64,000 nt of DNA from a phage: sequence record PZ154897.1; one strand, 5' to 3'. Shown one piece after another: positions 1-45,506 of this stretch (position 1 is its first letter; every line of letters starts with the position of its first letter). The translations under genes and the position numbers were made by a program. The notes under the pieces were generated by a model, which ran no database searches, had not been told where the DNA came from, and saw only the letters and a program-made list of their open reading frames with translations.

Positions 1-34
1 AATTGAACCTGCTACTAAAGTTTCCATGTTTTCC

Positions 35-415
35 TCACTTAGTCAAATTTTTTACGCATGAATTATAAGAATTTACTACATACTCCATCGGAGCATTTTT
101 ACCGGTACGCCATTGGTAATTATTAGCCCAATTTGCCCAAAGTTCAGCACAGTAGTTTTCAATTTTTTCTTCACGTGTAATCACATCTGAATTACGATAT
201 GCTTGGGCAGATTCATCTGGACGAATAGCTTCGTCAAAATTCGCCTGCATTTGTTCTACTGTCTGTTTTGGAGCCTCTTTATAACACTTAACATTAGGAT
301 TATAAAATTTGCTTGAACAGTTTACAATTTTTCCTACATCAGACTGATTTACTACTGGTCCTTGAGCTACACAACCAGTAAGACCCAATGCAATAACCAA
401 AATAGCGATTTTCAT
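35..415 (-). CDS. putative secreted lipoprotein, Cys-rich (signal peptide + lipobox LTGC)
   Basis: ORF track 35..427 begins at TTG; trimmed to first ATG (413-415) giving MKIAILVIALGLTGC...; GGAG SD upstream; early-promoter element just upstream. Confidence 0.5.
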   Translation of the reverse strand: MKIAILVIALGLTGCVAQGPVVNQSDVGKIVNCSSKFYNPNVKCYKEAPKQTVEQMQANFDEAIRPDESAQAYRNSDVITREEKIENYCAELWANWANNYQWRTGKNAPMEYVVNSYNSCVKNLTK

Positions 416-444
416 TTCATTCTCCAAATCCGTATCAGTTGATA

Positions 445-482
445 GTTATATAGTACCATAAAGGAACCGGGATGTAAACCAT
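445..482 (-). promoter_or_regulatory. early sigma70-type promoter (-35 GTTTAC, extended -10 TGGTACTATA) driving the lipoprotein gene
   Basis: minus-strand GTTTAC (474-479) and TGGTACTATA (449-458); member of repeated promoter cassette also at 16304, 45344, 49367 with shared upstream TTTTCACAAA. Confidence 0.55.
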
Positions 483-566
483 TTTGTGAAAAAATTTTTA
501 ATGAATTCAAAGGGCCCAGAATCATCTATTTTTCCTAAGTATAGATTTATATTACTTGTATGAAAA

Positions 567-584
567 AGGGACCCGGAGGTCCCT
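567..584 (-). terminator. stem-loop (7-bp stem, CGGA/UCCG loop) followed by U-rich tract downstream of gene 43
   Basis: agggacc-cgga-ggtccct palindrome; minus-strand UUUUCAU follows. Confidence 0.5.
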
Positions 585-596
585 AGATTTATTCTA

Positions 597-3293
597 TCAG
601 CCAAACAGGAAGTCTAACGAAGCTTTTTCCTCATAGTCCATACCTGCCGATTCACACATGCCCGCAAGCGGTTTAACAAACGATTTTTGGAACAAAGTTG
701 AGTAGTCAATCCAAGACAGTACATCAGAACGAATTTCTTTTGGAAGTTCCGTACCCGACGGCCAAGCAATGCACTTATCACCAAATGGATTTCCTTCACG
801 TAATGGAAGAACCATTACCTTATTTCCATCCAAAATTGGAGCTACACCTAAACCATTAACAGCTCGACGATAAGTTAGCACCCCACGAATGTGGAACGGG
901 CATTTAAATCCTGGCCAACCTTTATCATCATATTTCGCTATATCGTTCGCAGTTTTTACTTCAGCAATAACTTTATAGTCAAGTTGACGATATTCTTTCT
1001 CAAAGTTCTTGTAGTATTCTTGGACAGACTCTTCACCTTCCTGAAGAATACGACGAATACTTTCTTCGAGAGCTTCTTGTACTGCTTTTGGTGTTGAACT
1101 CTGCTGAGTTTCCATACCCATGATTTTTAGATGTGGTTCAGCAAATCGTTTATCTTCCATATCATAAACGTTCAGAGCATAACGCTTTTTCGCTTTCCAA
1201 AATCCACCAACACCCTTTGAACCAAGTGGAGGGCAAGAAATAGCTTCACGGTCCATATGCATCAGATGCTCGCGGTTATTCATATAATCACATAACTCAC
1301 GATATGCAACATCAATCATAGGTTCCATCTTTTTCTTACCAAACTGATTCATGAATTCAACTAAATCGTTCTGCTCTTTGAATCGGTCAAGACCAACTTT
1401 TTCAACAACTTTATCTACGCAAACATATACCGAATCAGTATCACCTGCTGCGATGAAATCTTCACCATTAGTTCCACACACTTTATTCAGATACTCATTA
1501 ATTTTACGAGCAATCCACTGAATACCGACTTGACCGAAAATTGTGATAGCAGTAGCATTTCGCAAATCATAGTAACGGAAATGAATATTACCAAGAGCAC
1601 CATAAAGACTGTTAATAAGAATTTTACGGTTCAGTTGATTTGTGTTAGCAAGTGTAGCCGCTTTTTCACATTCTTCAATCAGACTATTGAGAACGGATTC
1701 GGTGTAATTCGATAGTTCATTTAAGAAATCATCATTGAACTTAACATATCGTTCAACTTCTGGTTTAGTTGAACAAGACCCTGCGCCTTTCATAATAATC
1801 TTTTTAATAGCTTCGGCATTCATTTCTTCAGCGAACATTTTCTTTTTCCAATCTTTACGCTGGAAAAATACTTTAGCGATTTCCTTTGGAATGATACCTT
1901 CTTGATGCTTATCATACATCCATCCATTCGGAGAGCAAGAATATTCATCACTCGGTTTAGGAGCTGTTCCTGCAATATATTCATGAATTGGATGAACTTT
2001 AAACTGCCCACGAATAGTCTCAGGACTAATGTTAACCTGACGAATAATGCTAGGATACAGAGACGTCAAGTCAAAACTCATAATATATCGACGAGCAATT
2101 GGTTTAGGTTCAAACACAAATGCACCCGGAAAACTCTGTTTAACGTGCGAACCCTGTTGAGGAATAACCTTATGTTCACCTTTCAATGAGTTAAAAATAA
2201 TAGCATCCCAAGTTTTAATAGGACTCATTACACCAGAAAAAGGCATTTTAGCGTAATAAGACATACTTAAAACTAGATCGATAAACCCACGAATTTTATC
2301 AATTGCTTGAACTGATTCTACGTCAATGATGTTATAACTAATGTATCGTTGATGATTAGTCTCACGAAGTTTATTAATAGGACCATCGTACGGCAATTTA
2401 CCTTTTTTGGTTTCATGTTGAGCAACTGATTCCAAAGAGAACGATGGCAAATTAGTAAATGCGAACTTCTTGTATAAATCTAAATAATCAAGAATAGATA
2501 CGCCATCAATAGAATAAATTTCTTTGCTACCGTACATATTTTGAATTAGTTTAGATTTTACTCGACCGATTGGAGAGAAACGTTTCATACTGCGTTCGCC
2601 GAGAACCATTTTAACACGGTTCATGATATACGGAACGTCAAACCCCTCAATATTCCAACCAGTAAAAATAGCAGGTCGTTTCTGTTCCCAGAGATTGATA
2701 TATTCCATGAGCATATCACGCTCATTATCGAATGGCATATAAATTACTCGGTCAAGAATTTCTTGAGGAACTTCATCACCACCTTCACAGTCAAGCTTAG
2801 CAGCTAACTTTGCATCCCATTTTGATACTGAACCGTACATTGAATTCAACAAATCAAAGACGTAAAAACGGTCGTCAATTGAATCATAATGAGTGATAGC
2901 ATCAATTTCATATTCTGCTTTCATTGGGTCAGGAAATTTATCGCCAGTAACCTCAATGTCACAATTAGCTACACGAACAAATTTTCGGTCATAAACAATT
3001 TCTGAACCATACGTATCACTGATATAAGCGAGTTTAAAATCGTTCATACCGAGAGCTTCGAGACCGATGTCTTCCATTCGCTTCATCCAGTCTCGTGCAT
3101 CTTTCATTGATGGAAATTTTTGAGGAGCGCAATTTTTACCATAAATGTCTTTGTATTTTGACTCTTCCTTACAATGCCTAAACATAGTCGGAAGATATTC
3201 TACTTCGCGAGTACGTTCCTTTCCATTTTCATCAATATAACGTTCAACAATATTATTTCCGACTGTTTCGATAGAGATATAAAATTCTTTCAT
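597..3293 (-). CDS. 43: DNA polymerase gp43 (family B, with 3'-5' exonuclease)
   Basis: 898-aa ORF; N-terminus MKEFYISIETVGNNIVERYIDENGKERTREVEYLPTMF matches T4 gp43 from memory; size identical to T4 gp43. Confidence 0.97.
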   Translation of the reverse strand: MKEFYISIETVGNNIVERYIDENGKERTREVEYLPTMFRHCKEESKYKDIYGKNCAPQKFPSMKDARDWMKRMEDIGLEALGMNDFKLAYISDTYGSEIVYDRKFVRVANCDIEVTGDKFPDPMKAEYEIDAITHYDSIDDRFYVFDLLNSMYGSVSKWDAKLAAKLDCEGGDEVPQEILDRVIYMPFDNERDMLMEYINLWEQKRPAIFTGWNIEGFDVPYIMNRVKMVLGERSMKRFSPIGRVKSKLIQNMYGSKEIYSIDGVSILDYLDLYKKFAFTNLPSFSLESVAQHETKKGKLPYDGPINKLRETNHQRYISYNIIDVESVQAIDKIRGFIDLVLSMSYYAKMPFSGVMSPIKTWDAIIFNSLKGEHKVIPQQGSHVKQSFPGAFVFEPKPIARRYIMSFDLTSLYPSIIRQVNISPETIRGQFKVHPIHEYIAGTAPKPSDEYSCSPNGWMYDKHQEGIIPKEIAKVFFQRKDWKKKMFAEEMNAEAIKKIIMKGAGSCSTKPEVERYVKFNDDFLNELSNYTESVLNSLIEECEKAATLANTNQLNRKILINSLYGALGNIHFRYYDLRNATAITIFGQVGIQWIARKINEYLNKVCGTNGEDFIAAGDTDSVYVCVDKVVEKVGLDRFKEQNDLVEFMNQFGKKKMEPMIDVAYRELCDYMNNREHLMHMDREAISCPPLGSKGVGGFWKAKKRYALNVYDMEDKRFAEPHLKIMGMETQQSSTPKAVQEALEESIRRILQEGEESVQEYYKNFEKEYRQLDYKVIAEVKTANDIAKYDDKGWPGFKCPFHIRGVLTYRRAVNGLGVAPILDGNKVMVLPLREGNPFGDKCIAWPSGTELPKEIRSDVLSWIDYSTLFQKSFVKPLAGMCESAGMDYEEKASLDFLFG

Positions 3294-28375: not shown

Positions 28376-28903
28376 TTATGCGAGTACCGTCTTTAACCGT
28401 TCTTCAAACTTCCGAAGAGTATTTTGGCGTTCAGCTCTTTGCTTTTTGTAAGTTTCAATACGCTCTGAAATGAGAGTGTATCGTTCATTTACTGATTCTT
28501 TCATAAAATCAGGAATTTCACGAGAAGCTTTAATCTCATCAAATTTATCAATAACAGCTTGCTCTTCAGCAATTAAGTTATCATACATTAAAATATCTTT
28601 CTTGATGAACTCAATATCTTCTTGAGTTACACGAGATAATTTAGATGCTTTATCCTTTTTGTACTGTTCGTTAGTATCACGAGACCAGTGTAATGTACGA
28701 TTTTTATTCGTATTCTTGTAAATTTCTACAATACCAATCTCATCAATAATAACGATCCAATTCCAACGGGATTTGTAAATTTGTCCTCCATCAACAGTGA
28801 TTTCACCTCCGATTGAGATGTCGTTAAAGAACTTACTCTGTACTTCAGATTTAAATTTACCATCGTTGTAATTTACTAAGTTGAAAATATCTTTAGCGTT
28901 CAT
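28376..28903 (-). CDS. hypothetical protein with C-terminal coiled coil
   Basis: 175-aa ORF preceded by early-promoter cassette. Confidence 0.5.
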   Translation of the reverse strand: MNAKDIFNLVNYNDGKFKSEVQSKFFNDISIGGEITVDGGQIYKSRWNWIVIIDEIGIVEIYKNTNKNRTLHWSRDTNEQYKKDKASKLSRVTQEDIEFIKKDILMYDNLIAEEQAVIDKFDEIKASREIPDFMKESVNERYTLISERIETYKKQRAERQNTLRKFEERLKTVLA

Positions 28904-28929
28904 TTTCTGTTCCTCCGTAGTTGATAGTT

Positions 28930-28961
28930 GTATAGTACCACAGAGGAACAGTCTTGTAAAC
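28930..28961 (-). promoter_or_regulatory. early sigma70-type promoter (repeat-cassette member)
   Basis: minus-strand GTTTAC (28956-28961) and TGGTACTATAC (28930-28940). Confidence 0.5.
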
Positions 28962-28963
28962 CA

Positions 28964-29278
28964 CTAAAAGAAACTTCTTTCACAATTTTTTCCACTGAAC
29001 CATGCACTCACTGCTTTCTTAGTCTCAGGAGCAGTGTTATCCATAAACCATTCAAAGGCAGCCTTTTTATGATTCTGGAGGGCTTCTCGGGCTTTAATCT
29101 GCTCACGGTCTATTAACACTAACATATGAGCCTTTCTTGTCACCATGGGCTTCTTATGATTTTTTGAATACTCCCAGTCATTTGTCCATCGCATTGTCGT
29201 TGCGAATTGAAATACAGCTTCTTTAATCTTAGTTTCGTAAATTTCACGAGCCTTTGAGTATAACATCACTACCTCCAT
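28964..29278 (-). CDS. hypothetical protein
   Basis: 104-aa ORF; start may be internal Met. Confidence 0.45.
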   Translation of the reverse strand: MEVVMLYSKAREIYETKIKEAVFQFATTMRWTNDWEYSKNHKKPMVTRKAHMLVLIDREQIKAREALQNHKKAAFEWFMDNTAPETKKAVSAWFSGKNCERSFF

Positions 29279-45038: not shown

Positions 45039-45314
45039 TTATTTCATATTATTAAAATATTCTTCTGCGATTTCGTCGTTATCATGGTAAACTTTAGAAG
45101 ACAGTTTAACATAACCTTCAGCAGTGAACATGTTAATCACAACCTTTACAGTATACCACTGACCGTCTTCATTACCCATTACTGCGTAAGTTTCAAACAT
45201 CGGATGGTCAGGACCGATAACTTTAATATCATTCACTGTACGACCGAAATCTTCTGAAACACATTTCATAAAGAAGTTGAACAGTTCGCCGTAATTATCC
45301 ATTTCATTCTCCAA
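45039..45314 (-). CDS. hypothetical small protein
   Basis: 91-aa ORF downstream of promoter cassette; start may be Met5. Confidence 0.45.
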   Translation of the reverse strand: MENEMDNYGELFNFFMKCVSEDFGRTVNDIKVIGPDHPMFETYAVMGNEDGQWYTVKVVINMFTAEGYVKLSSKVYHDNDEIAEEYFNNMK

Positions 45315-45343
45315 GTTATTTTCTGTATCAGTAGTTGATAGTT

Positions 45344-45375
45344 GTATAGTACCATGGAAAAACGGGGATGTAAAC
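45344..45375 (-). promoter_or_regulatory. early sigma70-type promoter (repeat-cassette member)
   Basis: minus-strand GTTTAC (45370-45375) and TGGTACTATAC (45344-45354); upstream TTTTCACAAAACTGTTTAC. Confidence 0.5.
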
Positions 45376-45506
45376 AGTTTTGTGAAAAATTTTTTTAAAA
45401 AGTTTTAGGGAATTCTAGGGTGGGAAGGGGCAATTAAAGGATAGGATAATATATTATAAAGGGTAGAAACTAAATGATGCCTAGAGAGGTCCAGAAAGGT
45501 CTAGAT

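Follow-up and report, generated by a model that had tools for sequence, protein, structure and literature searches.

What does the small lipoprotein gene between gene 43 and imm of T4-like phages contribute to infection, and is its product part of the barrier that such a phage raises against a second one? The DNA-entry block by the 83-residue Imm is a mechanism that has been sought since the 1970s, and Imm and Spackle are the two known superinfection-exclusion proteins of T-even phages. The mechanism of Spackle was solved only in 2020. We studied this question in a stretch of 64,000 nucleotides of phage DNA (sequence record PZ154897.1), here called the window. A first-pass annotation of its first bases had described an ORF for an early-made, Cys-rich lipoprotein and had speculated that it mediates superinfection exclusion or masks a receptor, as Llp of phage T5 does.

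Identity of the ORF and its names in public records

The ORF product begins MKIAILVIALGLTGC and shares 124 of 125 residues (99%) with Imm.1 of T4. Pfam assigns it to DUF5481 (PF17578) with 239 bits against a cut-off of 27 (E = 5e-72), and it also matches phrog_1754 (E = 5e-44), a group to which no function is assigned. Judged by these matches the ORF is orthologous to imm.1 of bacteriophage T4 (NP_049661, UniProt P18057), a gene which has already been catalogued and whose older name is ORF 42.2 (1980s entry M37159). Thus the first-pass annotation had described the ORF accurately, but had not recognised it as a known T4 gene; the comparison with the T4 imm region which it had proposed identifies the ORF as imm.1, adjoining imm. 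The slot between gene 43 and imm, the type of promoter and the position of the lipobox are the same in T4 and in the window. The two differ in that the window protein has one extra C-terminal Lys and LTGC where T4 has LAGC, and in the spacer of the promoter, which is unlike that of T4 imm.1 and matches another promoter of the window. Over bases 1-700 the window is 100% identical to the DNA of Escherichia phage N2, and with about 500 Tequatrovirus records it shares 90-99% identity.

On the minus strand the ORF spans 35..427 when read from a TTG and 35..415 when read from the first ATG. The TTG at 427 was not accepted as the start, since it overlaps the Shine-Dalgarno (SD) sequence and since the annotations use the ATG at 415..413, which is the start chosen for both T4 and phage N2. 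The features of the locus are listed in Table 1.

Table 1. Features of the imm.1 locus, given in window positions and ordered along the direction of transcription.
Feature	Position	Strand	Details
Gene 43 (DNA polymerase), upstream neighbour	597..3293	minus	898-aa ORF; DNA polymerase in the phage N2 and T4 annotations
Intrinsic terminator-like hairpin	559..584	minus	AGGGACC-TCCG-GGTCCCT + T-run; 7 pairs, 5 of them GC; ends the gene 43 transcript
A/T-rich tract, UP-element-like	481..500	minus	upstream of -35; partly conserved in the homologue alignment
T4-early-type promoter	450..479	minus	GTTTACA 479..473, 17-nt spacer, TG 458..457, TACTAT 455..450
Shine-Dalgarno sequence GGAG	422..425	minus	6 nt before the ATG at 415..413; conserved among homologues
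imm.1 coding sequence	35..415	minus	126 aa + stop TGA at 37..35; evidence from ORF, Pfam, phrog and pN/pS
Signal peptide with lipobox	371..415	minus	L12-T13-G14-C15, lipobox codons 382..371; Val at +2
Residues 16-50, probably a flexible tether	266..370	minus	YNPxxKxY motif, Cys33/Cys44; pLDDT <55 in both models
Residues 81-125, predicted helical hairpin	41..175	minus	Cys89 at 151..149, Cys120 at 58..56; pLDDT 83-94
imm ribosome-binding site GAGG	33..36	minus	overlaps the imm.1 stop codon
imm, first 9 codons (METLVAGSI...)	1..27	minus	runs past the window edge; full gene in phage N2 and T4

Within the T4 type imm.1 is a real protein-coding gene under strong purifying selection. Seven Tequatrovirus copies differ from each other at 6-19 nucleotides, nearly all of these differences being synonymous, with a pN/pS of 0-0.13 at a pS of 0.05-0.22 and of about 0.03 within the T4 type. 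Time-resolved omics of T4 infection places imm.1 among the early genes both as RNA and as protein (PMC9697503, supplementary files 4 and 6), these data having been obtained with T4, which is another isolate than the phage of the window.

The names under which imm.1 is found in public records are unsupported. In RefSeq the T4 gene (NC_000866, 26636..27013) is called an iduronate sulfatase, a name which we reject, as Pfam and NCBIfam scans find no sulfatase family in the protein, which comprises 126 aa; from T4 imm.1 this name has spread to three further records (H19, H29 and H67). The label "immunity protein", used in many records, was likewise discarded, as Pfam gives only DUF5481 and the Imm family (PF14373) is not matched; the label apparently derives from the neighbouring gene imm. 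A literature search, in which the name "imm.1" collides with journal abbreviations, found no paper on imm.1 function, and scans of Imm.1 against PADLOC, NCBIfam and PDB sequence profiles gave sub-threshold matches only, mostly on the signal peptide.

Early transcription and linkage to imm

The first-pass annotation had placed the ORF directly downstream of gene 43 and behind a complete early-promoter cassette, and both statements are borne out. A hairpin with a T-run, annotated in the T4 entry M37159 as "pot. transcription termination signal", stands between gene 43 and the imm.1 promoter. The promoter belongs to the T4 early class (sigma-70, pre-MotA), having GTTTAC, a spacer of about 17 nt, TG, TAnnnT and an A/T-rich tract. 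The pattern GTTTAC-N17-19-TANNNT occurs 19 times in the window, 17 times on the minus strand, while 2.8 +/- 1.7 occurrences are expected from shuffles, and the early class of imm.1 in the T4 omics data agrees with this assignment. Upstream of the imm.1 homologues of 11 lineages TTTAC, TG and TA..T are invariant, whereas the flanks have otherwise diverged.

That imm.1 has a promoter of its own, as had also been supposed, does not hold for the phage of the window. The ATG of imm (27..25) comes 7 nt after the imm.1 stop codon, and because this gap cannot hold a further promoter, the promoter upstream of imm.1 is common to imm.1 and imm. With an early promoter in front of imm.1 and imm following at this distance, one early transcript for both genes is to be expected. 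In five further types the gap between the two genes measures 7-14 nt.

Parts of the promoter region are found again elsewhere in the window. The promoter-leader module at 405..540(-), composed of the A/T tract, GTTTACATCCC..., TGGTACTATA, the leader and TTGGAGAATGAAATG, recurs almost exactly at 45301..45436(-), upstream of an ORF at 45039..45302(-). The spacer of the imm.1 promoter of T4 matches the window promoter at 28932..28961(-), which lies within 28887..29022(-). These repeated promoter-leader modules look like exchangeable early-promoter cassettes, comparable with the PeSL idea that Arbiol and colleagues are said to have put forward in 2010.

In all lineages examined, nine in number, the gene of the imm.1 family lies within one gene of imm, and three arrangements can be distinguished. 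In arrangement A the order is 43, promoter, imm.1, imm, 42, with gaps of mostly 7-14 nt; it is found in Tequatrovirus, Gelderlandvirus, Jiaodavirus, Moonvirus and four metagenomic types. Arrangement B (61.4, imm.1, imm, sp, 61.2) is that of the RB69-like Mosigvirus, where the pair lies away from the gene 43 region and directly beside the spackle gene. In arrangement C (43, imm, small ORF, lipoprotein), found in Dhakavirus and Gaprivervirus, the lipoprotein gene stands on the opposite side of imm. The Mosigvirus genes imm.1, imm and sp each follow their own GTTTAC...TACTAT or TATAGT motif, so that three promoter units of one gene each stand in a row. Because imm has a promoter-like motif of its own in this genus, co-transcription of imm.1 and imm is not universal. 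In phage JS09 the promoter motifs of imm and sp are located about 40 nt upstream of the starts (L003 2860..2925 and 3170..3240).

As gene order is broadly conserved in this region, the argument from linkage rests on about two independent rearrangements. The superinfection-exclusion role suggested for the ORF receives circumstantial support from its co-transcription with imm, from the persistent linkage to imm and from the adjacency to sp in Mosigvirus.

Several additional small ORFs are found around the pair. Insertions seem to favour the slot upstream of imm.1: in some Tequatroviruses an 85-aa ORF, hydrophobic and rich in Cys at its N-terminus (MKIVYGCLAVCLVALAAC...), is located between promoter/SD and imm.1 (L015 1234..1491; also in L016-L018). 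The stop codon of this ORF overlaps the SD of imm.1, and the insert corresponds to the two-piece database matches H13, H25 and H30. In phage T2 an 83-aa ORF without signal peptide, "RB51ORF048", lies between gene 43 and imm.1 (L024 771..1022). On the other side, imm is followed in several lineages by a hydrophobic "42.1"-like ORF of 37-49 aa (L015 2137..2286, L009 2040..2183, L010 2061..2171), and a small ORF of this kind separates imm from the lipoprotein gene in Dhakavirus and Gaprivervirus.

Export signal, architecture and divergence of Imm.1

To assess the signal peptide and lipobox noted in the first-pass annotation we searched for the pattern [LVI][ASTVI][GAS]C with the Cys at residue 15-35, preceded by a charged n-region and a hydrophobic core. 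Under this PROSITE-type rule, applied by script, Imm.1 is a predicted lipoprotein, with one Lys (K2) in the n-region, a mean Kyte-Doolittle value of 3.2 in the core, and LTGC ending at Cys15; the Pfam LPAM_1 match on Imm.1 is weak (E = 0.44). Five cysteines had been counted in the approximately 110 aa that follow the lipobox. The number is correct, but it applies to the whole precursor and includes the lipid acceptor, the cysteines being Cys15 and four others (33, 44, 89 and 120).

The lipobox is kept in 10 of 12 family lineages, as LAGC, LVGC, TTGC, LTGC or LLSGC. The Lol sorting rule of E. coli reads the residue which follows the lipid-acceptor Cys. Among the family lineages this residue is V, A, G, S or Q, in no case Asp, so that transfer to the outer membrane is predicted by the E. 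coli rule; the Val at +2 in Imm.1 of the window represents no inner-membrane retention signal. In two metagenomic lineages (P0004 and P0008) the lipobox is replaced by an ordinary signal-peptidase-I site, with cleavage between ...AHA and S or E. The loss of the lipobox to an ordinary signal peptide suggests that the active part of the protein works in the periplasm, and the lipid anchor would be dispensable in some contexts.

Two AlphaFold runs, based on 7 and 12 sequences, agree in giving residues 16-50 low confidence and in predicting a hairpin of two helices (81-104 and 110-125); short helices are predicted at 53-64 and 68-74. The overall confidence of the models is low (pLDDT 66) and was not improved by the broader alignment of the second run. 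Only Cys89 and Cys120, both within the hairpin, are conserved across the whole family. Cys33 and Cys44 are confined to the T4-like N-terminal type, and the YNPxxKxY motif of the tether is invariant within the DUF5481 subgroup. A Foldseek comparison of the model with the PDB gave nothing below E = 1 (best E = 1.5), and a sequence-profile search of all PDB entries with E up to 10 gave no more than two matches, the unrelated 7sua and 9yec.

Cluster searches of 5.8 billion and 1.8 billion proteins found only 3 and 6 clusters, respectively, with family members, which indicates that the Imm.1 family is confined to T4-like phages. Pfam DUF5481 represents only a part of this family, whose range extends over at least seven genera of Tevenvirinae. 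The group phrog_1754 takes in a 148-aa lipoprotein of Salmonella phage Melville (E = 4e-46), the counterpart from Klebsiella phage KpV477 (6e-17), JS98 orf43 (9e-52) and VR7 ORF049c (3e-47), and tblastn with the Melville protein adds Citrobacter phage CF1, whose protein is 58% identical. A direct hhalign comparison of the small DUF5481 alignment with Melville gp037 gives a probability of only 21%, homology being established via phrog_1754. By tblastn 923 phage records contain a family member (657 of the T4 and RB69 types, 112 of the Melville type and 154 of the KpV477 type). T4 Imm matches 989 phage records, some of which are unrelated siphoviruses, and about 93% of the Imm-bearing records also carry a family member. 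A related-locus search with the imm.1 alignment gave seven viral loci and one contaminant contig.

Two database entries carry the names of bacteria. A 514-bp contig of a Bradyrhizobium assembly (L026, NZ_BQUV01000026.1), the only match in a cellular genome, is 99% identical to T4-type imm.1, and a "Xanthomonas campestris" protein (P0020) corresponds to a fragment of the lipoprotein from the Klebsiella phage. In both cases the bacterial assembly looks to be contaminated with phage sequence.

Between types Imm.1 diverges far faster than its neighbours, while within the T4 type it is nearly invariant. Among T2, T4, T6 and the phage of the window Imm.1 is 98-99% identical. Compared with T4, the identities of gp43, Imm and Imm.1 are 89%, 80% and 41% in lineage L021, 84%, 45% and 32% in L006, and 85%, 37% and 40% in L007. 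The proteins P0004 and P0008 look chimeric, combining a T4-like N-terminal motif with an RB69-like C-terminal hairpin. Discrete types which are conserved internally are what would be expected of a module for phage-phage competition.

A comparative study (PMC5885020) grouped Imm.1 with superinfection exclusion and treated it as absent from the RB69 group. Contrary to this, we find a 33%-identical Imm.1 homologue in RB69-like phages, relocated beside sp, which was probably missed in that study through an identity threshold.

Possible role of Imm.1 in superinfection exclusion

Considering linkage, timing, compartment and evolutionary pattern together, we infer that Imm.1 may be a periplasmic auxiliary or specificity component of Imm superinfection immunity, and we would put the probability of this reading at roughly 45%. 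According to this proposal imm.1 and imm would be transcribed early and together from one promoter. Imm.1 is predicted by established rules to be exported by the Sec pathway, lipid-modified at the thiol of Cys15 and cut by signal peptidase II, after which Lol sorting, as the residue rule predicts, would carry it to the outer membrane. The mature protein of 112 aa, as modelled, would consist of the lipid anchor, a flexible tether of approximately 35 residues that contains the YNPxxKxY motif, and, in the periplasm, a small helical domain whose final pair of helices is probably held together by a disulfide between Cys89 and Cys120. Imm.1 would then help to stop a second T-even phage in the periplasm, at tail-tube penetration or DNA transfer. 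To this end it might bind either part of the injection machinery of the incoming phage or Imm at its periplasmic face, with no involvement of outer-membrane receptor masking. More specifically, Imm.1 tethered to the outer membrane and Imm in the inner membrane could form a type-specific trap for the tail-tube tip or the tape measure protein, an elaboration which we regard as doubtful.

Several observations limit this proposal. Plasmid-borne imm alone reportedly excludes T4, a result that is said to go back to Lu and Henning in 1989, so that Imm.1 is not strictly required and could be at most auxiliary. If the two proteins formed a tightly co-evolving complex, Imm.1 would hardly be expected to diverge so much faster than Imm. 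Furthermore, other small envelope-directed ORFs occur in the same cassette, which therefore may simply collect unrelated membrane proteins.

Among the alternatives, a protection of the envelope that is independent of Imm survives best, although we consider it unlikely. Imm.1 would in this case inhibit or sequester an envelope enzyme, such as a peptidoglycan hydrolase, endonuclease I or a protease, or would stabilise the link between outer membrane and peptidoglycan, with the effect that the infected cell survives its own puncture, lysis from without or attack by ghosts. The periplasmic location, the early timing and the neighbouring lysozyme-inhibitor gene sp in Mosigvirus agree with such a function, as do the existence of soluble variants and the conservation across phages with different receptors, which fits a shared target. 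However, Imm.1 has no similarity to known families of lysozyme inhibitors or to any PDB fold, and the strong divergence between types is not expected if the target is a conserved host component within the Enterobacteriaceae.

It is distinctly unlikely, in our view, that imm.1 accompanies imm merely through shared ancestry and the shuffling of promoter cassettes while having an unrelated role, for example in counter-defence against a host system based in the envelope or in lysis-inhibition signalling. Such a history would be in line with the unrelated ORFs taken up by the slot downstream of the imm.1 promoter, with the repetition of the promoter-leader module elsewhere in the window and with the generally high synteny of the region. 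Yet the imm.1-imm pair has survived both a move to another genome region and an inversion of its order, and the co-occurrence of the family with Imm in about 93% of the records also speaks against it.

Imm.1 could also lack any excluding activity of its own and be a helper in Imm biogenesis, which aids the insertion of Imm, its positioning at injection sites or its stability. The persistent adjacency of the two genes and a layout resembling translational coupling are compatible with such a helper, which is nevertheless very unlikely: the predicted Lol sorting brings Imm.1 to the outer membrane while Imm resides in the inner one, Imm.1 is free to vary where Imm holds 80-83% identity, and the two genes stand in reverse order, separated by an ORF, in Dhakavirus and Gaprivervirus. 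Plasmid-borne imm, moreover, is said to work alone.

The receptor masking considered in the first-pass annotation would require, as for Llp of T5 or Cor, that Imm.1 attaches to the phage's own receptor from the periplasmic side and inactivates it, so that adsorption of further phages, or of progeny to debris, is stopped. Imm.1 resembles Llp in being made early, in its predicted outer-membrane lipoprotein nature and in its potential for a disulfide, and it is type-structured between genera. The receptors are OmpC for T4, FadL/OmpF for T2 and Tsx for T6. Because Imm.1 is 98-99% identical in these three phages although their receptors differ, and because similarity to Llp is lacking, masking of a receptor becomes highly improbable. 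Llp occurs neither among the PDB sequence-profile matches with E up to 10 nor among those of Foldseek, and the predicted fold of Imm.1 is helical, in contrast to the beta-rich Llp, so that the analogy with T5 Llp fails in receptor usage, sequence and fold alike. Moreover, T4-infected cells still adsorb secondary phage; this adsorption is the trigger of lysis inhibition. A spanin-type role was rejected because the promoter is early and an i-spanin partner is absent.

If Imm.1 did form a type-specific trap together with Imm, its fast-diverging types would determine the related phages against which exclusion acts and could thereby contribute to genetic isolation between groups of T4-like phages. 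An exclusion function is a plausible idea, and the gene context now gives it a firmer basis. Being conserved, early, envelope-directed and associated with imm in three arrangements, imm.1 is a concrete candidate for a third exclusion component, and as it is accessible to simple T4 genetics it offers a cheap and testable lead into the mechanism of Imm.

Compared with the known systems, Imm.1 shares with Llp, and with Cor of phi80/N15, the properties of a small early phage lipoprotein with disulfide potential that is predicted to be delivered to the outer membrane, on its inner leaflet. With about 62 aa, Llp has a compact, beta-rich fold and binds FhuA, the receptor of its own phage, whereas Imm.1 is predicted to be helical with a long tether, is not similar to Llp and does not vary with receptor usage.

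With T4 Imm and Spackle, Imm.1 has in common that the genes are early and the products located in the envelope, and in Mosigvirus imm.1, imm and sp adjoin one another, with a GTTTAC...TA(C/T)(T/A)(A/G)T motif in front of each. Imm is an inner-membrane protein with two helices (PF14373) and Spackle a soluble periplasmic inhibitor of the gp5 lysozyme, while Imm.1 belongs to neither of these families.

The closest functional analogue of Imm.1 would be Ltp of Streptococcus thermophilus phage TP-J34, a superinfection-exclusion lipoprotein which binds the tape measure protein and thereby blocks the injection of DNA. Ltp differs from Imm.1 in being derived from a prophage and in acting at the outer face of a Gram-positive cytoplasmic membrane; no similarity in sequence or fold was detected in the PDB searches, and Imm.1 has no HTH repeats. 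On the other hand, the anchor, the spacer and the small helical active domain of Ltp recur in the predicted architecture of Imm.1, whose spacer is modelled at low confidence, and the domain of Imm.1 would, like that of Ltp, face the space which is crossed by the incoming tail. Finally, Ltp stays active without its lipid anchor, and for Imm.1 as for Ltp anchor-less forms exist, be they natural or engineered.
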